Source of the DNA: Smithellaceae bacterium
GTDB taxonomy: Bacteria > Desulfobacterota > Syntrophia > Syntrophales > Smithellaceae
Reading direction: 5' to 3'
DNA length: 64,000 nucleotides
Assembly (NCBI GenBank): GCA_035448625.1
Contig: DAOTJI010000003.1
Location: forward strand, 14 to 64,013
Part shown: in pieces, positions 8,539 through 42,744 of the stretch
Layout: the number at the start of each line of letters is the position of its first letter
Numbering within the stretch: position 1 is the stretch's first letter
Notes under the pieces: model-generated
Databases searched by the model: none
The model's input: only the letters and a program-made list of their open reading frames with translations
Told to the model about the DNA's origin: nothing
Translations under genes and position numbers: made by a program

Positions 8539-8964
8539 GTGAATTATCATCTTTATCTGGAAAAAATCCGCGCCGGGAAAAAGGGGTTGAATCCCTACCT
8601 GGACCATTTCAACATCCAAGTGATAGATCTGTCATCCGGCCGCGCCGTCTTTCGGATGCCGGTGCGCCCTGAATACCTGCAGGGCGCCGGATTCATGCAG
8701 GGAGGTTTGATGGTCGCACTGGCGGACGAGGCCATCGCGCACGCCATGATGACGGTTCTCGCGCCGGAAGAAGGATTGACGACGATCGAGTTGAAAAGCA
8801 ATTTTCTGACCGGCGTGGACAAAGGAGAGCTTGTGGCCGAAGCGAGCGTTTTCAAGAAAGGCAGAAGCCTCATCATCGGAGATTGCCTGGTCACGGACGA
8901 CGGGCGAAAACCCGTTTGCCGCACTTCCGCAACCTTCATGCTGTTGAGATCAAAACAGAAGTAA
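8539..8964 (+). CDS. PaaI-family hotdog thioesterase
   Basis: 141 aa with a hotdog-fold pattern (QGGLMVALADEA...). GTG start preceded by GGGGAGG. Confidence 0.75.
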   Translation: MNYHLYLEKIRAGKKGLNPYLDHFNIQVIDLSSGRAVFRMPVRPEYLQGAGFMQGGLMVALADEAIAHAMMTVLAPEEGLTTIELKSNFLTGVDKGELVAEASVFKKGRSLIIGDCLVTDDGRKPVCRTSATFMLLRSKQK

Positions 8965-15153: not shown

Positions 15154-16443
15154 ATGGAAAAAGCAACATTGACGCTCAATGGGATGACGTATGAACTGCC
15201 GATCATCGAAGGGACCGAGAACGAGAAGGGCATCGATATCTCCCGGTTACGTCAGGATACGGGACTGATCACGCTGGATGTCGGTTACCAGAACACCGGT
15301 TCCTGCATTTCCGCCATTACCTATATCGACGGAGACAAGGGAATTTTACGATACCGCGGGATTCCCATCGAAGAGCTCGCTGAAAAAGCAAGCTTTACCG
15401 AAGTGGCCTACCTCCTCATCTACGGGGAGCTTCCCAACCGGGAGCAGCAGCAGCTATTTTCCCAGCGGCTGACGCAAAACTCCATGATTCACGAGGAAAT
15501 GCTGCGTTTCTTCGACGGCTTCCCGCCGACCGCCCATCCGATGGCGATTCTGGCGACCATGGTAAACTCCATGTCCGTGTACTATACGGACTATTTCACG
15601 GAAGATTTCAGGGCCGAGACGTTCGATCTGATGGCCGCCTCGCTCATTTCCCGAATTCGCACGATTGCCGCCTATTCCTACAAGCACAGCATCGGCCACC
15701 CGCATGTTTATCCCAAACGGGATCTCAAATACGCGTCTAATTTTCTCTATATGATGTTCGATTCTCCGGTGAATCCCTATGTGCCGGATCCGGATATTGA
15801 AAAGGCGCTCTCCACGCTCATGATCCTTCACGCCGACCATGAGCAGAACTGCAGTACGTCCACCGTGCGATTGGTGGGCAGCAGCATGGCCAATCTGTAT
15901 GCGTCGATCTGCTCCGGCATTTGCGCACTGTGGGGCCCGCTGCACGGGGGCGCCAACCAGAAGGTGATCGAGATGCTGGAAGAAATCCAAAGCAGCAAGC
16001 GGTCGATTCAAAGCTGCATCGATTCGGCCAAGGACAAGGCGAGCAAGTTTCGGCTTTTCGGCTTCGGCCACCGGGTGTACAAGAACTACGATCCACGCGC
16101 GCGGATTCTGAAGCAATACTGCGAAACCCTCTTTCAAAAGCACAATTACAAGGATCCGCTGATCAATATCGCCATGGAACTGGAAGAAGCGGCTCTGAAG
16201 GATGATTTTTTCGTCCAGCGAAAGCTGTATCCCAATGTCGACTTTTACAGCGGTATTCTGTACCGGATGATCGGCATTCCCACCAATATGTTCACGGTCA
16301 TGTTTGCCATCGGCCGCCTGCCCGGCATGATCGCGCAGTGGAAGGAAATGCACGACACCGTTCCGCTGAAAATCGGCCGTCCGCGCCAGATCTATACGGG
16401 CAGCAACCTTCGGCACTACATCCCGATGGACGAGCGGGGATAG
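15154..16443 (+). CDS. gltA: Citrate synthase
   Basis: 429 aa with typical citrate synthase motifs (HADHEQNCSTS, GPLHGGAN, GFGHRVYK). GGAGG RBS. Confidence 0.9.
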   Translation: MEKATLTLNGMTYELPIIEGTENEKGIDISRLRQDTGLITLDVGYQNTGSCISAITYIDGDKGILRYRGIPIEELAEKASFTEVAYLLIYGELPNREQQQLFSQRLTQNSMIHEEMLRFFDGFPPTAHPMAILATMVNSMSVYYTDYFTEDFRAETFDLMAASLISRIRTIAAYSYKHSIGHPHVYPKRDLKYASNFLYMMFDSPVNPYVPDPDIEKALSTLMILHADHEQNCSTSTVRLVGSSMANLYASICSGICALWGPLHGGANQKVIEMLEEIQSSKRSIQSCIDSAKDKASKFRLFGFGHRVYKNYDPRARILKQYCETLFQKHNYKDPLINIAMELEEAALKDDFFVQRKLYPNVDFYSGILYRMIGIPTNMFTVMFAIGRLPGMIAQWKEMHDTVPLKIGRPRQIYTGSNLRHYIPMDERG

Positions 16444-16473
16444 CGGAAAAAAACGCGTGGAGAAAATTTTTTC

Positions 16474-16502
16474 TTGACTTTTGCCGGCCGATTGCCTATA
16501 CG
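16474..16502 (+). promoter_or_regulatory. Sigma70-like promoter of the leader/transporter operon
   Basis: TTGACT (16474-16479), a 17-nt spacer, then TATACG (16497-16502). Confidence 0.5.
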
Positions 16503-16521
16503 CGCCCTAAAAGGACAAACT

Positions 16522-16608
16522 ATGATGAAAAAACAGATCACCGTTCAGACATTCCGCTTTTTCTTTTTTAGCTTTATCGGCGACAGGGTCTGCCTGGACG
16601 TATCATGA
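16522..16608 (+). CDS. Phe-rich leader peptide (28 codons), candidate attenuation leader
   Basis: AAGGA lies 6 nt upstream of the ATG. The ORF encodes MMKKQITVQTFRFFFFSFIGDRVCLDVS, with 6 Phe in 8 consecutive codons. It is too short for the ORF track. Confidence 0.6.
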   Translation: MMKKQITVQTFRFFFFSFIGDRVCLDVS

Positions 16609-16629
16609 CCTGGCATCAAGGGGAATGAA

Positions 16630-16666
16630 CCGTGGGCGGATGAAAATTTGCCCACGGTTTTTTTTT
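16630..16666 (+). terminator. Intrinsic terminator (attenuator terminator and/or gltA terminator)
   Basis: CCGTGGGC (16630-16637) / GCCCACGG (16650-16657), a 12-nt loop, then nine consecutive T (16658-16666). Confidence 0.85.
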
Positions 16667-16705
16667 ATTTGAAAATCGCAAATTCAAAAACAGGGGGATC
16701 AGATC

Positions 16706-17914
16706 ATGAAGACATGCGGCAGGATTTTACTTGCGTTGGGCATTCTGGCGCTGACGGCCATGGCGGGGCAGGCCATGGCCCAGACCAAAATCATCAAGGT
16801 CGGGGCGGCCATCAATCTGACGGGGCCCGCGTCGACCTGGGGGCAGTTTCACGAAAAAGGGCAGCGGGACTACTTCCGCTACGTCAATGAGGTGAAAGGC
16901 GGCGTGTCCGGCTACAAAATTGAAATGATCACCATGGACACCGCCTACAAGGTGCCGGAGGCGCAGGCCGCCGTTCAAAAATTCATTCTGCAGGATAAAG
17001 TAGACATGATCGCCACATGGGGCGCGGGCGAAGGCCTGGCCGCGAAGCCCATCGTCCAGAAATACAAGATTCCGACGATCAACTATTCCACCAGCTGGGA
17101 GATTTTGGAAAAGCCCGTGGACTACATGTACCTGCCGTTCGGCAGTTATAAGATGGATTGTCAGGCGGTTCTTGAATACATCAAAGCCGTCCACACGGGT
17201 CCGGAGGCGCCGAAAGTCGGCCTGTTGACCTACAACAACGCTTACGGGCGTTCGATTCACGCGCCCAGCCGGGAATATGCGGCAAAACTGGGAATTGAGC
17301 TGGTGGCCGTCGAGGAATTTCCGCCCAGGACCGTCGACCTCAATACGGAGCTTCTCCGCCTGCAGAAAAAAGGCGCCCGGTACGTTTTCATCCAGATGCT
17401 GCCCTCGACCATCATCACCGCCTTCAAAAGCGCGGACCGCATCCAATACAATCCGTTGTTTCTGGGGACCTGGACGTCCACCGACCCCGATTTCTTCAAG
17501 ATGGGCAAAGGCCTCATTCGCGACCGCCTGGTGATGCAGTTCCCCGGCGGTTTGCCCTCGGACAAATCTAAAGGCATGGACGTGATGAGGGAATTGTGGA
17601 GGCGCTACAAAACGGTCAAGAGCTTTGACGCATCCTACTGGGAGGGCGTCGTCGTCGGCATGATCATGGAAAGGGCGTTTCAGCGAGCCTACGAAAAATC
17701 AAAGGCAATCAATCCCCAGACCGTCAACGCCGCGCTGGAATCCATGAAGAACGAAGATTTCGGCGGACTGGTGCCTGCGGTGAGCTTCTCAAAAGACAGT
17801 CACGAGGCCTCCTTCACCGCGCGCATGGTCAAAGTGCTGGAAAACGGGACGTATATTCCCTTGACAAATTTCTATGTTCCGGGAAAAGACAAAATCAAAT
17901 TGCTGAAGAAATAA
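16706..17914 (+). CDS. LIV-family (type I PBP) ABC transporter substrate-binding protein
   Basis: 402 aa with a signal peptide and a Leu/Ile/Val-binding-protein-family fold pattern. GGGGGA RBS. Confidence 0.85.
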   Translation: MKTCGRILLALGILALTAMAGQAMAQTKIIKVGAAINLTGPASTWGQFHEKGQRDYFRYVNEVKGGVSGYKIEMITMDTAYKVPEAQAAVQKFILQDKVDMIATWGAGEGLAAKPIVQKYKIPTINYSTSWEILEKPVDYMYLPFGSYKMDCQAVLEYIKAVHTGPEAPKVGLLTYNNAYGRSIHAPSREYAAKLGIELVAVEEFPPRTVDLNTELLRLQKKGARYVFIQMLPSTIITAFKSADRIQYNPLFLGTWTSTDPDFFKMGKGLIRDRLVMQFPGGLPSDKSKGMDVMRELWRRYKTVKSFDASYWEGVVVGMIMERAFQRAYEKSKAINPQTVNAALESMKNEDFGGLVPAVSFSKDSHEASFTARMVKVLENGTYIPLTNFYVPGKDKIKLLKK

Positions 17915-17920
17915 GCGAAC

Positions 17921-17957
17921 GGCGCGGGAAGAACGGTTCGTCCGAAATTCCCGCGCC
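17921..17957 (+). other. Stable intercistronic stem-loop after the binding-protein gene
   Basis: 10-bp GC-rich stem GGCGCGGGAA / TTCCCGCGCC with no T tract. A second, smaller hairpin lies at about 17962-17983. Confidence 0.6.
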
Positions 17958-17993
17958 GAAAAACGCGGTGTCGCAACACGCGTCGAGGTGTTC

Positions 17994-18824
17994 ATGAAAG
18001 CATTCCGCAGCCGTCCGTCGATCATGGTGAACCGGCCCCAGGAGGATAAGAAAGCCGAACTGGAGGTTCGCAATCTGCGTCTGAGCTTCGGCGGCGTCGT
18101 GGCGGTTCGGGACGTGGATCTGTCCGTCCGCACCGGTGAGCTGATGGCGGTGATCGGCCCCAACGGAGCGGGGAAGACCAGTCTGCTCAACTGCATCACC
18201 GGCTTCTACCGCCCTCAGCAGGGCAGCATTCTTTTCAACGGCCGGGATATTACGCATCTGCACACGCACCAGCTGGTCGGCATCGGCATCGGCCGAACGT
18301 TTCAGAACATCGAACTCTTTCCGGGCATGACGGTGCTGGCCAACCTGACGCTGGCCCGTCACATCCACTGCCGGTACAGCTTTTGGCGTTCTTTCCTCTA
18401 TACGCCGTCCGTCCGCGAAGAGGAAATCCGCCACCGCCGGATTCTCGAAGAAATCATCGACTTTCTGGAGATGCAGTCCATCCGTAAGCAAACCGTCGGC
18501 TCCCTGCCGTACGGCATGATGAAGCGAGTGGAACTGGGGCGGGCGCTGGCGCTGGAGCCGCGGCTTTTGATTCTGGATGAACCGTTCGCGGGAATGAACC
18601 TGGAAGAAAAAGAGGATATGGTGCGATTTCTGCTGGAGCTGAACGGTCGATGGGGCCTCACGATGGTGCTGGTGGAGCATGACATGTCCATCGTCATGAG
18701 CATTTCCCGGCGCGTCATGGTGCTGAACTTCGGCGAGAAACTGGGGGAGGGCACTCCCGCGGAAATCGGCGCCAATCCAGAGGTCATTAAGGCGTATCTC
18801 GGCGATGCACAGTCGCCGTCATAA
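17994..18824 (+). CDS. ABC transporter ATP-binding protein (LivG-like)
   Basis: Walker A GPNGAGKTS. The ATG at 17994 has a GAGG RBS; the track used the GTG at 17988. Confidence 0.85.
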   Translation: MKAFRSRPSIMVNRPQEDKKAELEVRNLRLSFGGVVAVRDVDLSVRTGELMAVIGPNGAGKTSLLNCITGFYRPQQGSILFNGRDITHLHTHQLVGIGIGRTFQNIELFPGMTVLANLTLARHIHCRYSFWRSFLYTPSVREEEIRHRRILEEIIDFLEMQSIRKQTVGSLPYGMMKRVELGRALALEPRLLILDEPFAGMNLEEKEDMVRFLLELNGRWGLTMVLVEHDMSIVMSISRRVMVLNFGEKLGEGTPAEIGANPEVIKAYLGDAQSPS

Positions 18825-18840
18825 AGAAGGGTGAAACGCT

Positions 18841-20769
18841 TTGGAAAAGGCAACCCCGGATTCAATCAAACCAAACCAGCTTACGCTGCCGCAGCTTCTG
18901 GCGGTCAACGCCGAAAAATACGGTGACACGAAGACGGCCATCCGGGAAAAAGCCTTCGGCATCTGGCAGAAGTACACCTGGAGCGACTACTTTCATTATA
19001 TGAAAACAACGGCGGCCGGCTTTGCCTCCCTGAACCTGAGGAGAGGCGACAATCTGTGCATGATCGTCAACAATTCCCCGGAATGGCTCTTTTCCGAACT
19101 GGCCGCGCACGCGCTGGGCGCGACGTCGCTCAATCTCTTCACTTCCTCCATCGCCGAAGAGCTGGCCTTTTCCATCGGGCGTGTCCGCTCCCCCCTGGTC
19201 GTTGTGCAGGACCAGGAGCAGGTGGACAAGCTTCTGGAAATGAGGGACAAGCTGACGCGGGTTCAATACGTCGTGTACGTCGATCCCACCGGCATGACGT
19301 CGTATGAAAACGACCCCTGGCTCATCAGCTACGCGGCGCTTCTGGAGCGGGGCGAAAAATACCTGGCGGATCATTCGGGATTCATCGAGGAGGAAATCGG
19401 CAAAGGAAGGCCGCGGGACATTGCGGTCATGATCCAGACCTCCGGCACCACCGGCGTACCGAAAATCGCCATGCTGTCGCACCGGAACCTGACCGCCATG
19501 GCTCTCCAGTGGATTGAGGCTTCGAACATTCAGCCGGAGGAAAACTGGATTTCCATGTCGCCGACGGCCTGGATCGTCGATCAGATGTGGGGCATGGGCG
19601 TGGCGCTCGCCGGCGCCATGACCATGAACTTTCCGGAAACGCCGGAAACCGTTCTGGAGGACTTCCGGGATATCGGGCCTTCCATGCTGATCACGGCCTC
19701 ACGCTTCTGGGAAGACATGGCCTCCCGTATTCGCGTGAAAATCACCGATGCGGGCTGGCTCAAAAGGAAGCTCTTTTATCTTGGGGAAAGAGTCGGTAAA
19801 ACGGTCGTCGAAAAAAAATTGCGCAAGGAAAGCATTTCCTGGCCGCTCGGTCTGTTGTACCGCTTCCTGACGCTCGCGATTTACAACCCTTTGCTGGACC
19901 GTCTGGGCTGTTCCCGTTTTCACAGTGCGTTTACCGGCGGCCACCCGATCAGTCCCGACGTGATCGGCTTCTTCCGGGCAATCGGACTGAACCTGAAGCA
20001 GTGCTACGGACTCACGGAATCCTGCGGGATTTTCCAGATTCAGCCCGACGACGAGGTCAAGCTGGAGACCGTCGGCAAGCCGCTTCCGAATACGAGGGTC
20101 AGGCTGGCCGAGGATCAGGAAGTGCTGGTCCAATCAGAGGCCAATTTCTCCGGCTATTACAACGACTACCAGTCCACGGAGGCGGCGTTTGAAAACGGAT
20201 GGCTGAAAACCGGCGACGCGGGCTATATCGACGAAGACGGCCATCTGCTGATCATCGGGCGCAAGGAAGACATCATTCGCAACAAGAGCGGCGACGCTTT
20301 TTCGCCGGACTTCATCGAAACCAGGCTCAAGTTCAGCCCCTACATCAAGGAGGCGGTCACCTTCGGCGAGGCGCGGCCTTACATCACGGCGATGATCAAC
20401 ATCGATCTGGGCAATGTCGGCAGCTGGGCGGAAGAAAGGATGATTCCCTACACGACCTATATGGATCTGTCCCAGCAGAAGGCCGTAGAGGAGATGATTT
20501 TAAAGGAAGTCCGCGAGGTGAACCGCCAGCTTCCCGACGTGATGAAGATCAGAAAATTCGTTCTGCTCTATAAGCTTTTGGATGCGGACGACGACGAACT
20601 GACGCGCACCGGAAAAGTGCGCAGGCGATTCGTCTACGGTCTGTATATCAAAATCATTGAGGCGATGTACGGCGGGCTGCAAAGTGTGCCGGTGACGGGA
20701 AAAATCCGCTACCGCGACGGACGGATCGGCGAGATCGAAACCACCATCAACATTATCACCGTGGATTGA
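18841..20769 (+). CDS. AMP-forming acyl-CoA ligase (FadD/COG1022-like) embedded in the ABC operon
   Basis: 642 aa with the AMP-binding motif IQTSGTTGVPK and later TGD..DEDGHLLIIGRKED. TTG start with an AAGGGTG RBS. Confidence 0.8.
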   Translation: MEKATPDSIKPNQLTLPQLLAVNAEKYGDTKTAIREKAFGIWQKYTWSDYFHYMKTTAAGFASLNLRRGDNLCMIVNNSPEWLFSELAAHALGATSLNLFTSSIAEELAFSIGRVRSPLVVVQDQEQVDKLLEMRDKLTRVQYVVYVDPTGMTSYENDPWLISYAALLERGEKYLADHSGFIEEEIGKGRPRDIAVMIQTSGTTGVPKIAMLSHRNLTAMALQWIEASNIQPEENWISMSPTAWIVDQMWGMGVALAGAMTMNFPETPETVLEDFRDIGPSMLITASRFWEDMASRIRVKITDAGWLKRKLFYLGERVGKTVVEKKLRKESISWPLGLLYRFLTLAIYNPLLDRLGCSRFHSAFTGGHPISPDVIGFFRAIGLNLKQCYGLTESCGIFQIQPDDEVKLETVGKPLPNTRVRLAEDQEVLVQSEANFSGYYNDYQSTEAAFENGWLKTGDAGYIDEDGHLLIIGRKEDIIRNKSGDAFSPDFIETRLKFSPYIKEAVTFGEARPYITAMINIDLGNVGSWAEERMIPYTTYMDLSQQKAVEEMILKEVREVNRQLPDVMKIRKFVLLYKLLDADDDELTRTGKVRRRFVYGLYIKIIEAMYGGLQSVPVTGKIRYRDGRIGEIETTINIITVD

Positions 20770-20780
20770 GGAACCGGTTT

Positions 20781-21659
20781 ATGGATTTTTTTCTGCAACT
20801 GTTGGTGAACGGCGTCTGCATCGGACTGCTGTACGGCATTTCCGCGATGGGCTTCGTGATGATTTTCAAGGCATCCAGCGTGCTCAACTTCGCCCACGGC
20901 GAACTGCTGGCGCTGGGAGCCTTCTTTTTTCTCACCCTGGTCACCTGGGGGAAGATCCCCGTGCCGGCCGCGTTCGTGCTGACGCTGGCCGGATGTTTTC
21001 TGCTGGGATTTCTGATTGAAAAGTTTTTCCTGAGGCCGCTCATCGGCGAGAAGCTGATCTTTGTCATCATGCTGACGGTGGGGCTTGCCGCCATGTTCAA
21101 GGGCCTCATTCTGCTCATCTGGGGCGGCAATCTGCACACCTATCCGGAGTTTCTCCCTGAATCGCTGGAGTTTCATCTGGGGTCGATCTACATTGCGCCC
21201 GTGTATTCCGCCACGCTGATGATCAGCGTCGTGTTTCTGGTCCTCTTCGGCCTGTTTTTCAAGAAGTCGTCCCAGGGCATCTTCATGCGGTCGGTGGCGG
21301 ACAACCAGAAAGCGGCCCTGTCGCTGGGCGTTCACGTCCGCCGCGTTTTCGCGCTTTCCTGGGCGATTGCCGCAATGGTGGCCTGCATGAGCGGCATCGT
21401 TCTGGGCATCATCAACGGCGTGAATGTTCACGATCTGTCGGCCATCGGCCTGAAGGTCTTTCCCGTCGTGATTCTGGGAGGCCTGGACAGCATCGGCGGA
21501 GCCATCATCGGCGGCATCATCATCGGCCTTCTGGAAACCTTCACCGGCGGCTACCTGTCCCCGTCGTTGAGAGACGTGGTTCCCTATATCGTGCTGGTCT
21601 TCATCTTGATGGTGAAGCCTTACGGTCTGTTCGGCCTGGTGGAGATTGAAAGAGTGTAA
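20781..21659 (+). CDS. Branched-chain-type ABC transporter permease (LivH-like)
   Basis: Polytopic membrane ORF starting MDFFLQLLVNG, typical of the LivH family. Confidence 0.85.
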   Translation: MDFFLQLLVNGVCIGLLYGISAMGFVMIFKASSVLNFAHGELLALGAFFFLTLVTWGKIPVPAAFVLTLAGCFLLGFLIEKFFLRPLIGEKLIFVIMLTVGLAAMFKGLILLIWGGNLHTYPEFLPESLEFHLGSIYIAPVYSATLMISVVFLVLFGLFFKKSSQGIFMRSVADNQKAALSLGVHVRRVFALSWAIAAMVACMSGIVLGIINGVNVHDLSAIGLKVFPVVILGGLDSIGGAIIGGIIIGLLETFTGGYLSPSLRDVVPYIVLVFILMVKPYGLFGLVEIERV

Positions 21660-21660
21660 T

Positions 21661-22731
21661 ATGAAGAAACCATCGTTTCATCCCTGCGGGAATTTCCGCG
21701 AAACCTACGCCGAGGAGCTGGCGATTTTCGACACCTGGTTCGGCCGGGTGAGCCTGCTGGTCTTCCTGCTTCTGCTGTTCGGACTTGCGCCGTTTCTCCT
21801 GGACCGCTACCTGCTGTATATTCTGAACAGCATCGGGATCATGGCGATTGCCGCCGTCGGCCTCAATATTCTGATCGGCTACACCGGGCAGATCTCGCTG
21901 GGACACGGCGCGTTTTTCGGCGTGGGCGCCTACGCGGGGGCGATTCTGGCCACGCGCCTGAACCTGCCGTTCTTCGTCTGCATCCCCGCCGCGGGATTGA
22001 TCACCGCCATGGTCGGCATGATTTTCGGCATTCCTTCAGGACGCCTCAAGGGGCTTTACCTGACGATCGCCACGCTGGCCGGCCAGTTCATCATCGAATA
22101 TGTTCTGATCCAGTGGGAAAGTCTGACCAAGGGAACGATGGGGATCACGCTGCCGGAGCCGCAGGTTCTGGGGATCAACATCGCCGGGGACAAGGCCTTT
22201 TTCTTTCTGATTTTCACCTGCCTGGTGTGCATGACCTGGTTTGCGGTCAACATCATGCGCAGCAAATACGGGCGGGCGTTCATCGCCATTCGTGACAACG
22301 ACCGCGCGGCGGAGGGGATGGGCATTCCGATTTTCCGCTACAAGCTTCTGTCATTTGCCATCAGCTCTTTTTACGCGGGTTTCGCCGGTTCCCTCTGGGC
22401 CTACTACATGGTCAGCATTACGACGGAGCCCTTCAACCTCGCGCTGTCCGTGGAATTCATCGCCATGGTCATCATCGGCGGCATGGGCAATATCCCCGGG
22501 GCGATTTTCGGCGCAACCTTCATCACGGTGTTGAACGAACTTTTGCGCTTCGCGACGGGCGCCCTGATGAACGTCGGATGGATTGCCGGACTGGGGCTGA
22601 ACATGGCGCCGCTTCGCGAATTTGTTTTCGGACTGGCGATTGTGCTGTTCATTTTACTGGAACCCAAGGGGCTGGCGGAGTTGTGGCGCATTGTGCGCTC
22701 CAGCTTCCGGCTCTGGCCGTTCTCGTATTAG
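21661..22731 (+). CDS. Branched-chain-type ABC transporter permease (LivM-like)
   Basis: Polytopic membrane ORF. The ATG lies 1 nt after the LivH-like stop. Confidence 0.85.
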   Translation: MKKPSFHPCGNFRETYAEELAIFDTWFGRVSLLVFLLLLFGLAPFLLDRYLLYILNSIGIMAIAAVGLNILIGYTGQISLGHGAFFGVGAYAGAILATRLNLPFFVCIPAAGLITAMVGMIFGIPSGRLKGLYLTIATLAGQFIIEYVLIQWESLTKGTMGITLPEPQVLGINIAGDKAFFFLIFTCLVCMTWFAVNIMRSKYGRAFIAIRDNDRAAEGMGIPIFRYKLLSFAISSFYAGFAGSLWAYYMVSITTEPFNLALSVEFIAMVIIGGMGNIPGAIFGATFITVLNELLRFATGALMNVGWIAGLGLNMAPLREFVFGLAIVLFILLEPKGLAELWRIVRSSFRLWPFSY

Positions 22732-22814
22732 AAAATCAAGAAATATTTCTGCTTTTTCAGCAGAGACATTTCGCAGATTTTCTCATCCCGCATGGCGGGG
22801 TTAGGATAAAAAGC

Positions 22815-23615
22815 ATGGGAGACATTCTTTTACAGCTCAACAATATTTCCGTTGTGTATTCCGACGTGATTCAGGTGCTCAAAGGCGTGTCGCTATCGGT
22901 TGCGCGCGGACATATCGTGTCGCTTCTCGGCAGCAACGGAGCGGGAAAAACCACGACACTCAAGGCGATTTCCGGCCTTTTGAAGCCGGAAAACGGGGAA
23001 GTCACCGACGGCGACATTATTTTCAACGGAGTGAACATTCAAAATCAAGCACCCGAATTCATCACCCGCCAGGGCGTCATTCAGGTGCTGGAAGGCCGCC
23101 AGCCTTTCAAATATCTGACCATCGAGGAAAATCTGCGCGTCGGAACCGCCACCCGGCCGGGCAAACCCTATAAAGAAGATCTCGAAATGGTTTATCGTTA
23201 TTTTCCGGCGCTGGTGAAAAGAAAGAAGGCGCTGGCCGGGTACTGCAGCGGCGGGGAGCTGCAGATGCTGGTCATCGGCCGGGCGCTGATGGCGCATCCG
23301 CAGCTTCTGATGCTGGACGAGCCTTCGCTCGGCCTTGCTCCGCTGGTGGTGCAGGAAATCTTCCGCATCATCCAGAAGATCAATGAAGAGCACGGGACTA
23401 CCATTGTCCTGGTGGAGCAGAACGCCAACATGGCGCTGCAGGTCGCGCATTACGGCTATGTGATGGAAAACGGCAAAATCGTCATGGAAGGCACGGCCCG
23501 CGAGCTTGCCGACAACCCGGATGTCAAAGAATTTTACCTGGGGCTGGCCGCCTCGGGTATCGCCAAATCCTATAAGGACGTCAAATCCTACCGCCGCCGC
23601 AAACGATGGTTGTAA
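22815..23615 (+). CDS. ABC transporter ATP-binding protein (LivF-like)
   Basis: Starts MGDILLQLNNISVVY, with Walker A GSNGAGKTT and signature SGGE. The track ORF from 22578 is an upstream extension. Confidence 0.85.
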   Translation: MGDILLQLNNISVVYSDVIQVLKGVSLSVARGHIVSLLGSNGAGKTTTLKAISGLLKPENGEVTDGDIIFNGVNIQNQAPEFITRQGVIQVLEGRQPFKYLTIEENLRVGTATRPGKPYKEDLEMVYRYFPALVKRKKALAGYCSGGELQMLVIGRALMAHPQLLMLDEPSLGLAPLVVQEIFRIIQKINEEHGTTIVLVEQNANMALQVAHYGYVMENGKIVMEGTARELADNPDVKEFYLGLAASGIAKSYKDVKSYRRRKRWL

Positions 23616-23628
23616 AAGGGGAGGAACC

Positions 23629-24882
23629 ATGAAACGGTTGTATGATGAAAAAGAAGCGTGGAGCGTCGAAGAAAGAAAATCCCGGCAGGACAGGCGTCTG
23701 TCGCGCATGGTGAGACTGGGCTATCGGAAGTCGGCCTCCCTGAAAAAGATGCTCGACGACCATCGCATCGATCCCGCCCGAATCCGGACCAGGGAGGACT
23801 TGGAAGCGCTGCCCGTCACCTCGCGGGAAAAACTGGTGGAAATGGAGATGCGCAAGCCGCCCTACGCGGGTCTGGAAAATCCTGACATCGCCGTCGACCG
23901 CATTTTTACGTCTCCGGGACCGGTTTATGAGCCGCATTTATCCGAGACGGATTATCTCTGGGCGCGCGCTTTTTTCGCGGCGGGCATCGGGCCGAAGGAC
24001 ATCGCGCTCAATGCCTTTTCCTATCATCTGGTGGCGGCCGGCCTCACGTTTCACAACGGCCTGCGCAAAGTCGGCGCGACGGTGGTTCCCTCCGGCACGT
24101 CTTCATCGCAGATTCAGGTTCAGCTCATCCACGACCTGAAAGTAACCGCCTATGTGGGGACACCGAGCTTTCTTATGTCCATCATCGAAAAATCCAGAGA
24201 AATTGGCTATGATTTCAAAAAGGATTTCCGGGTAAAGAAGGCATGCTTTGCCGCCGAGCCGCTCCTGCCTTCACTGAGAGAAAAATTTGAAAAAGAATTC
24301 GGCATCAGAACCTTCCAGATGTACGGCGCTACGGAAGTAGGGGACGTGGCGTATGAATGCAAGGCGAAATCCGGCTGGCACATCTGCGAGGAAACGATTG
24401 TGGAAATCGTCGATCCGGCAACGGGCAAAAACGTTGAGCCGGGTACACTGGGCGAAGTGGTTGTGACGCGCCTCAACGATATTTTCTTTCTGCTGCGCTT
24501 CGGAACTGGCGATTTATCCCGGCTCGTCACCAAAAAATGCTCCTGCGGACGGACTTCTTATCGTTTAGCGGGCATTGCGGGAAGGATAGGCGATGCGGTA
24601 AAGGTGAGGGGGCTTTTCATCGCTCCCAGCCAGTTGAAGCTCCTTTCCGCCAGATTCGATAATATTCTCCTTCAGGCCGTGGTCGGCCGCAAAGGCCATG
24701 AAGACGTTTTAACGCTGCGCGTCGATAATTCGAATACACTAGTAAATACGGATAAATGGAAGAATAACTTCAAGAAGATATTTAAGGAATTGTGCACGGT
24801 CCGAATCGACGTTCTGGAAGTTGTGGAAAAAGGCGGAATCAAGCCGGACCAGAAGATGATCGTCGATTGCCGGACGTGGTAG
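23629..24882 (+). CDS. Phenylacetate-CoA ligase family (PaaK-like) adenylate-forming enzyme
   Basis: Strong GGGGAGG RBS. PaaK/F390-synthetase-like motifs include SGTSS, YGATE and GTGDLS. Confidence 0.8.
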   Translation: MKRLYDEKEAWSVEERKSRQDRRLSRMVRLGYRKSASLKKMLDDHRIDPARIRTREDLEALPVTSREKLVEMEMRKPPYAGLENPDIAVDRIFTSPGPVYEPHLSETDYLWARAFFAAGIGPKDIALNAFSYHLVAAGLTFHNGLRKVGATVVPSGTSSSQIQVQLIHDLKVTAYVGTPSFLMSIIEKSREIGYDFKKDFRVKKACFAAEPLLPSLREKFEKEFGIRTFQMYGATEVGDVAYECKAKSGWHICEETIVEIVDPATGKNVEPGTLGEVVVTRLNDIFFLLRFGTGDLSRLVTKKCSCGRTSYRLAGIAGRIGDAVKVRGLFIAPSQLKLLSARFDNILLQAVVGRKGHEDVLTLRVDNSNTLVNTDKWKNNFKKIFKELCTVRIDVLEVVEKGGIKPDQKMIVDCRTW

Positions 24883-36647: not shown

Positions 36648-37955
36648 ATGAAAAACATATCCATCGGCTTGATCGGCCTGGGGAATATTGGAACCGGCGT
36701 GGTCCGGCTGCTGAAACAAAACGAACAACTCATCGCCCAGAAGCTGGGCGCAAAACTCATTTTAAAGAAAATCGCCGATATTGATATCACGTCTTCGCGC
36801 GGCGTGAAAATCCCGAAAAAGCTGCTCACGACCGACGCCCGTGAAATTCTCAACGATCCGGGCATCTCCATCGTGATCGAACTGATGGGCGGGTACGAGC
36901 CGGCGCGCACCTTCGTTCTGGAAGCCATTCGAAACGGCAAACACGTGGTGACCGCCAACAAGGCCATGCTGGCCACTTATGGAAATGAAATTTTCCCGGC
37001 TGCGCAGAATCAAAATGTGGATATCGGATTTGAAGCCAGCGTCGGCGGAACCATTCCGATCATCAAAACCCTGAAGGAATCGCTGGTGGCCAACCGGATC
37101 CGGTCTATCGTCGGCATCATGAACGGAACCTGCAACTTCATTCTCACCAAAATGACAAACGAGGGAAAACCTTTCGATGTGGTCCTGAAGGAAGCCCAGC
37201 AGCTGGGTTTTGCCGAGGCGGACCCGACCTTCGACATCGAAGGCATCGATACGTCGCACAAGATGGCCATCGTGCTGTCGCTCGCCTACGGGAAAAAAGT
37301 CCGGCTCAAGGATATTTACCTGGAAGGCATTACGAAAATCAGCGCGGAGGACATCGCCTTCGCCAGGGAGTTGGGCTACCGGATCAAGCTGCTGGCGATC
37401 GGCATGCTGAAAGGCGAAGCGGTGGAGGCCAGAATCCACCCGACCATGATCGCATCGGGGCACCTGCTGGCGAATGTCAACCACAACTACAACGCCTTCC
37501 ATCTGGAAGGAGACGCCTCCGGACCGGTCTTTCTGTTCGGTCAGGGCGCAGGCATGATGCCCACGGCCAGCGCGGTCTTCAGTGATATTCTGGACACCGC
37601 CCGCAATGTGCTGAAGGGCATTTCCGGCCGGGTGCCGCTTCGGTCCATCAATGAGGCCGGCATGGAGGACATCCGGCTGGTTCCGATGGACAATATCGAG
37701 ACGAAGTATTATTTCCGGTTCACCGCCCTGGACCGCCCCGGCGTTCTGTCGAAGATATCCGGCATTCTGGGCGCTCACGACATCAGCCTGGCCACCGTGA
37801 TCCAGAAGGCAAGGGAAGAGGCGGGGGCCGTGCCCATCGTGATGACGACCTATAAGGCGAAGGAGAAAAACGTGCGCAAGGCGCTCACGAAAATCGACCG
37901 TCTGGACGTTGTCCGGGACAAAACCGTTCTCATTCGCATCGAGGACGAATTGTAA
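36648..37955 (+). CDS. hom: Homoserine dehydrogenase (with C-terminal ACT domain)
   Basis: 435 aa starting IGLIGLGNIGTG, with a catalytic region and a C-terminal ACT-like segment (YYFRFTALDRPGVLSKISGIL). Confidence 0.9.
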   Translation: MKNISIGLIGLGNIGTGVVRLLKQNEQLIAQKLGAKLILKKIADIDITSSRGVKIPKKLLTTDAREILNDPGISIVIELMGGYEPARTFVLEAIRNGKHVVTANKAMLATYGNEIFPAAQNQNVDIGFEASVGGTIPIIKTLKESLVANRIRSIVGIMNGTCNFILTKMTNEGKPFDVVLKEAQQLGFAEADPTFDIEGIDTSHKMAIVLSLAYGKKVRLKDIYLEGITKISAEDIAFARELGYRIKLLAIGMLKGEAVEARIHPTMIASGHLLANVNHNYNAFHLEGDASGPVFLFGQGAGMMPTASAVFSDILDTARNVLKGISGRVPLRSINEAGMEDIRLVPMDNIETKYYFRFTALDRPGVLSKISGILGAHDISLATVIQKAREEAGAVPIVMTTYKAKEKNVRKALTKIDRLDVVRDKTVLIRIEDEL

Positions 37956-38013: not shown

Positions 38014-39240
38014 GTGAAATATGTGGTTTTGCTGGGAGACGGAATGGCGGATTATCCAAGCCGGCAGTTGGGAGGGAAAACCCCGCTGGAGTGCGCCGTG
38101 ACGCCCTTTTTGGATCAGATCGCATCTGAAGGCACACTCGGGCTGGTGGATACGATTCCCGAAGGGTTTACGCCCGGATCGGATGTGGCCAATCTCAGCG
38201 TGCTGGGCTATGATCCGAAAGAAACCTACACAGGGCGCGGCCCGCTGGAAGCTGCCAGCCAGGGAATTCCACTGGGACCCGACGACATCGCCTACCGCTG
38301 CAACCTGGTCCACATCGGGGAGCCCGAGGAGGGTCCGGCGTTCATGGACGATTTTACCGCCGGGCACATCTCTTCCCCCGAGGCCGGAGAGATCATTCTG
38401 GATCTTAATAAAAAGATGAACTCGCCCCGCTACCAGTTTTATCCCGGCGTAGGGTATCGCCACCTGCTGGTATTGAGAGGCGCGGCCGGCTCTCCCCGGA
38501 CGACTCCGCCGCATGACATTCCCGGCAAACCGATTGCTCCGTATCTGCCGCAGGGCGATGCGGCACAGGAAATTCTCGGACTGATGCGGGCCGCGGCGGA
38601 TATTCTCAGAGACCACCCGGTCAACGGCGCACGTCTGTCCCAGGGAAAGAAACCGGCCAACTCCATCTGGCTGTGGGGGCAGGGGGGGAAGCCGCAGATG
38701 TCACCGCTGACCGAAAAATACGGACTCACAGGCGGCGTGATTTCCGCGGTGGACCTGCTCAACGGACTGGGCATTTACGCAGGTCTGAAACCCCTGCGCG
38801 TGAAAGGAGCCACCGGGTATATCGACACCAACTACGAAGGAAAAGCCGCGATGGCGCTTGACGCGCTGAAGTTCATGGATTTTGTGTTCCTTCATCTGGA
38901 AGCGCCGGATGAAATGGGGCATGAGGGAAACGCGAAGGGCAAGATCATGGCCATCGAGTTTTTCGATGAAAAAATCGTCGGGCCGATTCTGACGCGCATC
39001 CGCGAACTCGGGGAATACCGCATACTGGTGCTCAGCGATCATCCGACGCCGATCGACGTAAAAACGCACGTGGGCGATCCGAGCCCCTTTGCCGTCCTGT
39101 CGTCCAGGCGTGAGGAAAATCTCGCCCGGGGACCGAAATTCACCGAAGCCCAGGCCGCCGCCGCCGGTCTGGTCGTGTCTCCCGGGCATCTGCTGATGGA
39201 CAACTTCATTCGGGACTGGAGCGCTTTTCTTGGAAAGTAA
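38014..39240 (+). CDS. ApgM-family (cofactor-independent phosphoglycerate mutase-like) enzyme; possibly the alternative homoserine kinase
   Basis: 408 aa, GTG start. It begins MKYVVLLGDGMADYP and has HLEAPDEMGHEG metal-site motifs of the archaeal-type iPGM family. It lies directly downstream of hom. Confidence 0.8.
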   Translation: MKYVVLLGDGMADYPSRQLGGKTPLECAVTPFLDQIASEGTLGLVDTIPEGFTPGSDVANLSVLGYDPKETYTGRGPLEAASQGIPLGPDDIAYRCNLVHIGEPEEGPAFMDDFTAGHISSPEAGEIILDLNKKMNSPRYQFYPGVGYRHLLVLRGAAGSPRTTPPHDIPGKPIAPYLPQGDAAQEILGLMRAAADILRDHPVNGARLSQGKKPANSIWLWGQGGKPQMSPLTEKYGLTGGVISAVDLLNGLGIYAGLKPLRVKGATGYIDTNYEGKAAMALDALKFMDFVFLHLEAPDEMGHEGNAKGKIMAIEFFDEKIVGPILTRIRELGEYRILVLSDHPTPIDVKTHVGDPSPFAVLSSRREENLARGPKFTEAQAAAAGLVVSPGHLLMDNFIRDWSAFLGK

Positions 39241-39649
39241 CCTGACCAAAATCCGCGTGATATACGCCGATACGGACGCGATGGGCATTGTCTACCACGC
39301 CAACTATATCCGCTGGTTTGAGCTGGGACGCAACGAACTGATGCGCCAGGCGGGAATTGTTTATTCGGATTTGAATATGCTGGGCCTCCATCTGCCGTTG
39401 ACGCAGGTGTACTGCCGCTATCTGCTGCCGGCGACCTACGACGACCTGCTCACGGTGGAAACGAACTTCGATTACATCAAAAGGGCCAGCATCCGGTTCG
39501 GCTCCAAAATCTGGGACGAAAGCCGGCGGAAGCTTCACGCCGAAGGATACACCATCCACGCCTGCACGAATCACGAAGGTAAAATCCGCAGAATGCCGGC
39601 ATTGATTACCGGGTTGATCGAGAAATATTCCATACGCAAAGGGGAGTAA
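39230..39649 (+). CDS. YbgC/4-hydroxybenzoyl-CoA-thioesterase-family acyl-CoA thioesterase
   Basis: RVIYADTDAMGIVYHANYIRWFE is a typical N-terminal catalytic-Asp motif. It overlaps the upstream gene by 11 nt (TTG start). Confidence 0.75.
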   Translation: MESNLTKIRVIYADTDAMGIVYHANYIRWFELGRNELMRQAGIVYSDLNMLGLHLPLTQVYCRYLLPATYDDLLTVETNFDYIKRASIRFGSKIWDESRRKLHAEGYTIHACTNHEGKIRRMPALITGLIEKYSIRKGE

Positions 39650-40380: not shown

Positions 40381-42147
40381 TTGAAAAGAGTATTGATGTC
40401 AGGAAATGAAGCCATTGCCCGCGGGGTTTACGAGGCGGGCGTGAGATTTGCGGCGGCCTACCCGGGCACGCCCAGCACCGAAATCATGGAGCAGTTCGCC
40501 CGCTATGACGGCGTTTACGCCGAATGGGCGCCCAATGAAAAAGTCGCGGTGGAAGTGGCCGTCGGCGCAGCGCTCGGCGGCGCCAGAGCCCTGGCGGTGA
40601 TGAAGCACGTGGGCGTGAACGTGGCCGCCGACCCGATCTTTACCGTGAGTTACACCGGGATCGAGGGAGCGCTGGTGATCATCAGCGCCGATGACCCGTC
40701 CATGCACAGCTCGCAAAACGAGCAGGACAATCGCAACTACGCCAAGTTCGCCAAGATTCCCATGCTGGAGCCGGCCGATCCGCAGGAAGCGAAAGAATAC
40801 GTTAAGCTGGCCTTCGCCATCAGCGAGCAGTTCGACACGCCGGTTTTTCTGCGCACGACCACGCGCGTTTCCCACTCCAAATCCGTGGTCACGCTCAGCG
40901 AAGTGCAGAATCCCGAAGACAAAACCACACTGGCGCATCATGCGGCGAAGTACGTCATGGTTCCCATCAATGCGCGCATCCGCCGCGTAGAAGTGGAAAA
41001 GCGCCAGAAAGCCCTGCAGAAGTTTGTGGAAACGTTTCCTGAAAATAAAATGGAAATCAACGATCCGGAGGTCGGCATCATTACCGCGGGCATGCCCTAC
41101 AATTACGCCAAGGACATTTTCCCGAACTATTCCTATCTGAAGCTGGGCATGGTCTATCCGCTGCCCGTGAAAATGATCCGGCATTTCGCAGCGCAGGTCA
41201 AAAAAATTTACGTCGTGGAAGAGCTGGATCCCTATCTGGAAGAGCAGATCCGGGCCATGGGCATCGAAGTGACCGGCAAGGAGATTTTCCCCTACACGAA
41301 TGAATTTGACCCCGGCGTGATCCGGAGCGCAATCCTTTCCGGCGGCGGGCGCTCCGCTTCACCCTATCCGGAAACCCTGGCCATGCGGCCGCCGAACCTC
41401 TGTCCCGGATGTCCTCACCGGGGATTGTTTTACGCGCTCAAAAAATCCAAAGCGTACGTCCACGGCGACATCGGCTGCTACACGCTTTCCTATTTGAAGC
41501 CCCTGGAAGGGCTGCATTCCTGCATCTGCATGGGCGCCAGCATCGGCATGGCCCACGGGATGAGCAAGGCCCTCATGGAAAAAGGGAAGGGGAAGGTGGT
41601 GGGCGTCATCGGCGATTCCACTTTTCTGCACTCCGGCATCGCCCCGCTGATGAACATGGCCTACAACAACAGCGACGCCCTGATCATCATTCTGGACAAC
41701 AGCACCACGGCCATGACCGGCATGCAGGAGCATCCCGGCACGGGCTACACGCTGATGGGGAAGGAAACCAAAAAAGTCAATCTGAATGTTTTGATATCAG
41801 CCCTGGGGATTGAAAATATCCGGGTGATCGATCCGAACAACGTGAAGGAAGCCCGCATCGCGATTAAAGACGAACTGGCCAGCTCCGGCCCTTCGGTCAT
41901 TATCGCCCAAAGCCCCTGCGTTCTGTTCAAAAGGGCGAATCAAAAGCCAAAGCCGCCGCTCAGGGTTGATGAAGACGCGTGCGAAGGCTGCCGGGCCTGT
42001 CTGGAGCTGAACTGTCCGCCGATTGCCTGGAAAAAAGGCGTCCCGAAGGATGGCTCGAAGCGAAAGGGAATCGCGGTGATCGATGAGACGCTGTGCAACG
42101 GGTGCGGACTTTGCGCCCAGGTCTGCCGGTTCAATGCGATCCGCTGA
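40381..42147 (+). CDS. iorA: Indolepyruvate:ferredoxin oxidoreductase alpha subunit
   Basis: 588 aa with a TPP-binding region (GDSTFLHSG) and C-terminal 2x[4Fe-4S] motifs (CEGCRACLELNCPP, CNGCGLCAQVC). The start may be the TTG at 40381 or the ATG at 40396. Confidence 0.85.
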   Translation: MKRVLMSGNEAIARGVYEAGVRFAAAYPGTPSTEIMEQFARYDGVYAEWAPNEKVAVEVAVGAALGGARALAVMKHVGVNVAADPIFTVSYTGIEGALVIISADDPSMHSSQNEQDNRNYAKFAKIPMLEPADPQEAKEYVKLAFAISEQFDTPVFLRTTTRVSHSKSVVTLSEVQNPEDKTTLAHHAAKYVMVPINARIRRVEVEKRQKALQKFVETFPENKMEINDPEVGIITAGMPYNYAKDIFPNYSYLKLGMVYPLPVKMIRHFAAQVKKIYVVEELDPYLEEQIRAMGIEVTGKEIFPYTNEFDPGVIRSAILSGGGRSASPYPETLAMRPPNLCPGCPHRGLFYALKKSKAYVHGDIGCYTLSYLKPLEGLHSCICMGASIGMAHGMSKALMEKGKGKVVGVIGDSTFLHSGIAPLMNMAYNNSDALIIILDNSTTAMTGMQEHPGTGYTLMGKETKKVNLNVLISALGIENIRVIDPNNVKEARIAIKDELASSGPSVIIAQSPCVLFKRANQKPKPPLRVDEDACEGCRACLELNCPPIAWKKGVPKDGSKRKGIAVIDETLCNGCGLCAQVCRFNAIR

Positions 42148-42162
42148 AAGAGGAAATAGGCT

Positions 42163-42744
42163 ATGCAAGAAGACCGTGTAAGAAGCATTCTGTTTGCCGG
42201 AGTGGGCGGACAGGGTATCATCCGGGCCAGCGACATTCTCTGCGAGGTCATGATGGAGGCCGGATTCGATGTCAAGAAGAGTGAAGTTCACGGCATGGCG
42301 CAGCGCGGCGGCTGTGTCACCAGCCATGTTCGCTACGGCCGGAAGGTGTATTCGCCTCTGGCGGAGCCGGGGACCATTGAAACTCTGGTTTCTTTTGAGA
42401 AAATGGAAGCCCTGCGCTATCTGGAGTACCTAAGTCCGAATGCTTCCATCATTCTTAATACGGAGCAAATCTACCCCCCGGCCGTCAATACAGGAGATGA
42501 ATCGTATCCTGATGATATTATTAATTTTTTAAAAAATCATTATCCTAAAGTAACGGCCGTTGACGCGCTTTTGCTTGCTCAGAAGGCGGGCAATCTGAAA
42601 ACGGCCAACGTCGTCCTTCTGGGAGCTCTCTCCTCAATGATGGAGATTCCGCATTCGCTATGGGAAAGCGTCCTTCGGAAATCGTTTCCGCAAAAACTTG
42701 TAAAATTGAATCTTGAAGCTTTTCAAATGGGAATTCCTGCTTAA
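42163..42744 (+). CDS. iorB: Indolepyruvate:ferredoxin oxidoreductase beta subunit
   Basis: 193 aa with GVGGQGI near the N-terminus and MAQRGG, typical of the IorB / 2-oxoacid:Fd oxidoreductase gamma-type domain. Confidence 0.85.
   Translation: MQEDRVRSILFAGVGGQGIIRASDILCEVMMEAGFDVKKSEVHGMAQRGGCVTSHVRYGRKVYSPLAEPGTIETLVSFEKMEALRYLEYLSPNASIILNTEQIYPPAVNTGDESYPDDIINFLKNHYPKVTAVDALLLAQKAGNLKTANVVLLGALSSMMEIPHSLWESVLRKSFPQKLVKLNLEAFQMGIPA

Follow-up and report, generated by a model that had tools for sequence, protein, structure and literature searches.

Which compound is taken up by an importer operon of the LIV type that carries two coenzyme A (CoA) ligase genes and lies behind a short open reading frame (ORF) rich in phenylalanine (Phe) codons? 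This question is raised by seven genes in the genome of a Smithellaceae bacterium of the order Syntrophales (Desulfobacterota; GenBank assembly GCA_035448625.1, 2.63 Mb in 143 contigs, rated 100% complete). We analyzed 64,000 nucleotides of contig DAOTJI010000003.1 (positions 14 to 64,013, forward strand); this whole stretch is called the window, and positions refer to it unless another contig is named. The operon very probably encodes an importer of an acid, with CoA ligase genes embedded among those of the transporter, and is controlled by an attenuator sensing Phe and tyrosine (Tyr). The best single reading, to which we assign a probability of about 0.5, is that the imported acid is an arylacetate bound for the synthesis of Phe and Tyr by indolepyruvate:ferredoxin oxidoreductase (IOR), because the leader, the ligases, the Tyr codons in the leaders of relatives and the gene context in family f42 all fit it.

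Genes were called from the ORF listing together with Pfam and NCBIfam profile scans, and likely true starts were picked by ribosome-binding sites. All seven genes lie on the forward strand within positions 16706 to 24882 (Table 1), with a citrate synthase gene upstream on the same strand and recJ downstream in convergent orientation on the reverse strand. Pfam finds all five components of a HAAT (LIV-type) importer, namely a binding protein, two permeases and two ATPases, and the 642-aa ligase shows the domain set of the COG1022 type (AMP-binding and AMP-binding_C_3). With the chosen starts the intergenic gaps are, in gene order, 79, 16, 11, 1, 83 and 13 nt, four of the junctions being only 1-16 nt apart. 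Family scans and gene order agree with a preliminary description of the window, made from the letters alone, which had seen here one LIV importer operon with two embedded adenylate-forming ligases; this gene set is established by sequence and comparison. Judged by the tight junctions and their conserved position, the ligases belong to the transporter. None of the five transporter proteins reaches its NCBIfam LivJHMGF equivalog cut-off (bits/cut-off: binding protein 43/477, LivG 256/362, LivH 117/379, LivM 136/366, LivF 223/441), and the 642-aa ligase misses that of FadD11 (262 vs 950 bits). A strong hairpin without U-run follows the binding-protein gene (17920-17958, forward strand) and may be an mRNA stabiliser or a partial stop. 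Two very stable hairpins are found at 22730-22801 in the 83-nt gap between the LivM and LivF genes (-31 kcal/mol, z-score -5.9).

The leader ORF upstream of the operon is preceded by a Shine-Dalgarno sequence (AAGGA, 16511-16515), and its run of Phe codons (16552-16575) reads F-R-F-F-F-F-S-F. It overlaps a predicted antiterminator, which was folded from an RNA ending at the 5' arm of the following intrinsic terminator. In the core of the antiterminator GUCUGCCU (16588-16595) pairs with GGGCGGAU (16634-16641) of the terminator arm, and more pairs are formed further inside. The stop codon of the leader (16606-16608) is located inside the 5' half of the antiterminator, and a ribosome reaching it would therefore destroy this structure. 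As read from the sequence, the layout of stop codon, antiterminator and terminator is textbook attenuator geometry.

Pairing of both structures was assessed on 35 distinct sequences. In the terminator 89% of the cells pair, 22 cells are changed on both sides, and its covariation score was matched by none of 500 shuffles. In the antiterminator 80% of the cells are pairable, compared with at most 47% when the partner was slid. No covariation was found for it in the 35 sequences, the 8 bp of the core being invariant or changed on one side only; compensatory changes are missing because the helix hardly varies. The C-terminus of the leader peptide (VCL.VS) is conserved because its codons form the antiterminator strand. 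In almost every locus of the Syntrophales, and in family f61 as well, a leader rich in Phe or Tyr with a U-run behind it precedes the orthologous binding-protein gene. The best 9-residue window contains on average 4.8 Phe and 1.1 Tyr (88 distinct leaders), and Tyr stands inside the Phe run in 70 of the 88. IOR accepts a range of arylpyruvates, and the Tyr codons match this range. With a conserved ORF, a covarying terminator and a conserved predicted antiterminator, the Phe-codon leader suspected earlier proves real, and the comparison establishes both the attenuator and its conservation. Rfam contains no leader or riboswitch family matching the window at the gathering threshold or the region 16440-16710 in a permissive scan; Phe_leader (RF01859) was not matched at either threshold. 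In 11 orthologous loci without such a leader, Rfam gave nothing but one nhaA-I match (Na+ riboswitch; L152:584-647, 43 bits, gathering score 37), about 325 nt 5' of the binding-protein gene in one f29 genome.

The operon is conserved well beyond this genome. Of 80 Smithellaceae loci, 40 contain the complete set of seven genes in this order, and most of the other loci end at contig edges. The binding protein was detected at 53-89% identity in 32 of 301 sampled Desulfobacterota genomes (24 genera), and the six-gene core is intact in all 19 loci that are long enough, out of 20 loci phylum-wide. Judged by these comparisons, the gene order is far from chance. It is the seventh gene that varies. Syntrophales, f61 and one f29 genome have a PaaK-like ligase of 57-63% identity, and other families have one of 41-46%, either after LivF or before the binding-protein gene. 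Most f29 loci continue instead with a classical 525-aa ligase, an acyl-CoA dehydratase activase and a BcrC/HadC-like (dehydratase-like) protein. Beyond this tight family, the next binding proteins are just 30-37% identical. These families keep the plan of binding protein, LivG, COG1022-type ligase, LivH and LivM, and the position of this ligase between LivG and LivH is the same in every orthologue. Some of the outside families adjoin one or two PaaK-like ligases, a CBS/ACT protein and a sigma-54 activator. Since a shared plan is combined with differing neighbours, the module of LIV importer plus ligases is widespread and wired to different regulators. A search for longer forms of the 642-aa ligase yielded two metagenomic fusions of ligase, LivH and LivM (P0001, P0002), which were rejected as frameshift or gene-calling artefacts because of long out-of-frame stretches rich in Arg, Pro and Ala on contigs of high GC content. 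They still reveal the same gene order in other lineages.

A genome-wide leader scan, in which the names of downstream genes were read from N-terminal sequences only, revealed five further leader attenuators, each with a terminator and each before a supply gene for the sensed amino acid (Table 1). The only good Phe leader of the genome is the one in front of the importer-ligase operon; none was flagged by the scans in the aro cluster which holds pheA. As the other attenuators all front biosynthetic genes, an anabolic or supply role is likely for this operon too, which strengthens the earlier argument for such a role. By analogy, the operon would serve Phe supply.

A link to IOR is found in family f42, where the orthologous operon of two genera (binding protein 65-67% identical) continues on the same strand into further genes (loci L203, G173:C1:10500-22000, and L202, G233:C17:14000-25500). 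These are, in order, DctPQM, Hbd, IorA, IorB, a PaaK-type ligase with AMP-binding_C_2, a FAD oxidase/CCG protein, a ligase of 519 aa, a BcrAD-type activase and an HGD-D (2-hydroxyacyl-CoA) dehydratase. This enzyme set points to aromatic 2-oxo or 2-hydroxy acid metabolism. The tie between the importer-ligase operon and IOR, proposed for the window from the mere presence of both, thus gains a contiguous example. The IorA frame of G173 is broken by one in-frame TAG. Presence of IOR in the Smithellaceae genome itself is established by the family scans: the IorAB of the window is orthologous (47-55% identity) to the pair following the f42 operon, and a second copy is located on contig C27. IorA was also found (E <= 1e-100) in all 32 sampled genomes carrying the binding protein.

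Taken together, the operon would serve to take up and activate a carboxylic acid and would be switched on when charged tRNA-Phe, and in most relatives also charged tRNA-Tyr, becomes short. With ample Phe-tRNA the ribosome would reach the leader stop codon and open up the antiterminator in its 5' half; the terminator would form, and transcription would halt before the seven genes. A ribosome stalled in the Phe run would allow the antiterminator to form and RNA polymerase to continue into the operon. The binding protein and the LivHMGF-type transporter would then import an acid, which the COG1022-type and PaaK-like ligases would turn into a CoA thioester. The likeliest acid is an aromatic one of the phenylacetate or 4-hydroxyphenylacetate type. 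Its CoA ester would be converted to the arylpyruvate through reductive carboxylation by IorAB, followed by transamination to Phe or Tyr. Such a route would be a cheap supplement beside the intact shikimate route. We infer the ligand, the substrates of both ligases, the direction of IOR and the carbon flow into Phe from gene content and context. For the Syntrophales in general we tentatively propose, at slightly less than even odds, a salvage unit sensing the charging of Phe- and Tyr-tRNA, in which LIV importer and ligases, linking uptake to thioesterification, capture arylacetates from the environment for conversion by IOR to Phe and Tyr.

Table 1. Coordinates of the leader region, the operon and related genes in the window, and of further leader attenuators on other contigs of the genome
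Feature	Position	Strand	Details
Sigma-70-like promoter	16474-16502	+	TTGACT, 17-nt spacer, TATACG; consensus match only, unlisted in a stricter scan
Phe leader ORF	16522-16608	+	MMKKQITVQTFRFFFFSFIGDRVCLDVS, then stop; 28 codons
Antiterminator	16588-16641	+	nascent-RNA fold, -22.5 kcal/mol
Intrinsic terminator	16627-16666	+	15-bp stem and 9 U, -26.8 kcal/mol
Substrate-binding protein	16706-17914	+	Peripla_BP_6, HAAT family, signal peptide; Pfam
LivG-like ATPase	17988-18824 (ORF)	+	ABC_tran and BCA_ABC_TP_C; likely start 17994 or 18024; Pfam
COG1022/FadD11-like AMP-forming acyl-CoA ligase	18841-20769	+	642 aa, AMP-binding and AMP-binding_C_3; Pfam, NCBIfam
LivH-like permease	20766-21659 (ORF)	+	BPD_transp_2; likely start 20781; Pfam
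LivM-like permease	21646-22731 (ORF)	+	BPD_transp_2; likely start 21661; Pfam
LivF-like ABC ATPase	22578-23615 (ORF)	+	likely start 22815; Pfam, NCBIfam
PaaK-like (COG1541) adenylate-forming ligase	23506-24882 (ORF)	+	likely start 23629; Pfam, NCBIfam
IorA	40381-42147	+	family scan
IorB	42163-42744	+	family scan
4HBT hotdog thioesterase	8539-8964		family scan
4HBT hotdog thioesterase	39230-39649		family scan
Trp leader	C21:22923-22982		MNSANNWWWWNLPERSIRR (WWWW); before trpE-like gene, 500 aa
Trp leader	C19:34324-34377		MNILNRNWWWQAMNVCP (WWW); before TrpB2-like gene, 453 aa
Ile-rich leader	C102:2362-2297	-	IIISRIII; before citramalate/isopropylmalate-synthase-like (cimA/leuA-like) gene
Val-rich leader	C11:22017-22106	+	LVVVVV; before ilvB-like gene
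Leu-rich leader	C21:3914-4006	+	before leuA-like gene

Several observations weigh against an arylacetate destined for IOR, beginning with the genomic setting of IOR. The IorAB genes of the window lie outside the operon, 15.5 kb from it, and are preceded by hom, an ApgM-like gene, a thioesterase gene and a TPR gene, that is, in threonine-pathway surroundings. No Phe-rich leader was found upstream of them, and judged by this arrangement they are not co-regulated with the operon. IOR occurs in 227 of the 301 genomes of the phylum; as it is nearly ubiquitous there, its co-occurrence with the transporter is uninformative. The genome also contains, in one cluster, DAHP synthase, DHQ synthase, CM-PDT-ACT (pheA, directly after DHQ synthase), DHQase-SDH, EPSP synthase, shikimate kinase, chorismate synthase and PDH. 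The shikimate/prephenate route, whose loss or retention had been named as a check, is therefore complete, and salvage is not required but at most supplementary. The scans agree with the positions given in the preliminary description for IorAB and for two hotdog thioesterases; nothing was found that ties either thioesterase to the operon. The homoserine dehydrogenase gene and, following it, the ApgM-like (cofactor-independent phosphoglycerate-mutase-like) gene, at 36648-37955 and 38014-39240, immediately precede the thioesterase, TPR and IorAB genes. For ApgM-like proteins beside hom, a function as alternative homoserine kinase has been proposed.

Counterevidence of the same kind comes from the last gene of the operon. 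Its product had been called a PaaK-like enzyme, and the ligase superfamily stands, the best PDB sequence match being the phenylacetate-CoA ligase 4r1l (E 2e-42). The protein remains, however, far below the PaaK cut-offs (178 vs 646 bits for TIGR02155, 220 vs 700 bits for NF041878) and has no match to Pfam AMP-binding_C_2; by these profiles it is a member of the PaaK superfamily only. Relatives of this ligase adjoin LivF-like genes in 17 of 28 other loci, and in none of the 28 is IorA or IorB found within 1.5 kb, which places it by gene context in a LIV-operon-linked rather than an IOR-linked subfamily. No Phe leader was found within 1.5 kb of other PaaK-like genes in 18 loci. Within the Smithellaceae genome, the PaaK type linked to IOR in f42 finds its nearest counterpart (53%) in a different gene, on contig C53, where a PaaK-type ligase with AMP-binding_C_2 adjoins an MFS transporter (C53:11000-13900). 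A match to the PaaK-like ligase is absent from four Smithellaceae loci that reach recJ and from one other Syntrophales locus, all of them with the leader and the six-gene core. Most orthologous loci outside the Syntrophales are without the Phe leader, and the nearest outside families (33-37% identity) adjoin TetR and ETF alpha/beta genes, neighbours which suggest a catabolic use of acids.

The binding protein, 53-92% identical across Desulfobacterota, was compared with solved structures by means of an AlphaFold2 model (pLDDT 88). The top structural match is 3lkb, a valine-bound Thermus protein (TM-score 0.84, 24% identity), followed by 4n03, titled as a fatty-acid binding protein (TM-score 0.80). 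The aromatic-acid binders of Rhodopseudomonas palustris are more distant (TM-score 0.70-0.74, identity 16-19%); placement relative to these characterised proteins had been suggested as a check, and the binding protein is close to them neither in sequence nor in structure. Deriving the ligand from the fold led to no conclusion, the nearest structures being valine-bound or titled fatty-acid binder at 20-24% identity. In a profile alignment with E. coli LivJ, invariant Trp residues are aligned to Tyr18, Leu77 and Glu226 and a Leu to Tyr202. We take these LivJ positions to be ligand contacts, with Glu226 presumably binding the alpha-ammonium group. The alignment suggests an aromatic-rich pocket without an amino-acid (alpha-ammonium) clamp. 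The valine-bound 3lkb likewise has no Glu at the position of LivJ 226, and this pocket argument is therefore weak and no more than suggestive.

The catabolic neighbours of the outside families would agree with an operon for the uptake and CoA activation of hydrophobic carboxylic acids in general (fatty, alicyclic or aromatic) as carbon and energy source, on which the Phe leader is a lineage-specific overlay reporting amino-acid or translation status and not a specific demand for Phe. Fatty acids and alkanes are the substrates on which Smithella and its relatives live, and the title of 4n03 and the absence of the leader from most non-Syntrophales orthologues fit this as well. The same holds for another LIV-type system of this genome (C25:12700-18900), which includes a COG1022-type ligase of 610 aa and shares with that of the window 24% identity in the binding protein and 37% in the ligase. 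We consider this explanation unlikely: the enrichment of the leader is specific to Phe and Tyr and is kept across an order, the other leader attenuators of the genome each front a gene making the cognate amino acid, and control of a core catabolic importer by Phe-tRNA would have no evident logic. In addition, the contexts in f42 and f29 indicate aryl-type or 2-hydroxy-acid metabolism. These contexts could also be explained by a different Phe precursor, such as 3-phenylpropionate, cinnamate or phenyllactate, which would be converted to phenylpyruvate by chemistry of the 2-hydroxyacyl-CoA dehydratase type and without IOR, as genes for a ligase, an acyl-CoA dehydratase activase, a dehydratase and a FAD oxidase/CCG protein come after the f29 and f42 operons. 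Homologues of activase and dehydratase are present on contigs C28 and C29 (36% identity), and two differing ligases hint at more than one acid being handled. The Syntrophales operon, though, has no dehydratase genes in or beside it, and we know of no established biosynthetic use of such a route in reverse, which makes this precursor route improbable.

Alternatively, the imported compounds might be the amino acids Phe and Tyr, in the manner of E. coli LIV-I, with the ligases serving an unrelated purpose. An importer induced by shortage of its amino acid would be a sound regulatory design, the annotation of the liv genes of E. coli reads branched-chain amino acid/phenylalanine transporter, and the best PDB match of the binding protein was crystallised with valine. 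Import of amino acids, however, gives the CoA ligases no role, and these are kept inside the operon across phyla at junctions of 1-16 nt. Moreover, invariant Trp, Leu and Ala stand in place of the residues of the LivJ alpha-amino/carboxylate clamp, and every NCBIfam Liv equivalog cut-off is widely missed, for example by the binding protein (43 vs 477 bits). We therefore regard amino-acid import as quite improbable, and uptake of an arylacetate for IOR-dependent synthesis of Phe and Tyr remains the preferred explanation.

If this explanation is true, transporter, activating enzymes and control would be named for a salvage pathway that has been known biochemically for decades, and a role would be assigned to a widespread, uncharacterised module of LIV importer plus two ligases. 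A Phe-sensing attenuator before an importer-ligase operon yields a specific and directly testable hypothesis. It also offers a way into a large LIV-type family with embedded ligases, whose members routinely receive the annotation of branched-chain amino acid transporter. Close to the thermodynamic limit at which syntrophs live, scavenged aromatic rings would spare much biosynthetic energy, and scavenging would link the growth of these organisms to what their neighbours release when fermenting Phe.

Rumen bacteria and methanogens have long been known to form aromatic amino acids by reductive carboxylation of arylacetates. In them, exogenous arylacetates are converted via the CoA ester and IOR alongside the de novo pathway. 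The Smithellaceae genome resembles these organisms in having IorAB and candidate ligases and differs in that IOR is located outside the operon and the steps are predicted from genes. For Methanococcus maripaludis, PMC4162585 states, citing Porat et al., that aromatic amino acids are made from aryl acids and gives MMP0713/0714 as the IOR subunits. In the literature covered, from which subscription journals were mostly missing, no transporter, dedicated activating ligase or regulator was found for the aryl-acid route, and neither the operon nor the leader was found described.

The transporter shares with E. coli LIV-I (LivJ/K-HMGF) the five components, the Pfam families and the BCA_ABC_TP_C tail on LivG, in contrast to which the equivalog cut-offs are missed, the clamp residues of LivJ are replaced and two ligase genes are embedded. 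The R. palustris binders (PDB 4ey3, 4evs, 4f8j, 4jb0, 4dqd and others) have the same fold as the binding protein and are a family precedent for binding benzoate, coumarate or phenylpyruvate instead of amino acids, although, with the low identities and TM-scores given above, they are not its nearest structures. With PaaK (TIGR02155; PDB 2y27, 4r1l) the PaaK-like protein has the ligase superfamily in common, and its best solved relatives are phenylacetate-CoA ligases; the low bit score, the lack of AMP-binding_C_2 and the subfamily found beside LivF-like genes set it apart. The leader resembles the enterobacterial pheL-pheA and pheM-pheST attenuators in its short ORF with a Phe run, its predicted mutually exclusive antiterminator and terminator and the stop codon inside the antiterminator. 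It differs from them in the missing match to RF01859 and in the Tyr codons mixed into the run in most relatives. Whereas pheL and pheM control pheA or pheST, the leader described here would control an importer together with its CoA ligases.

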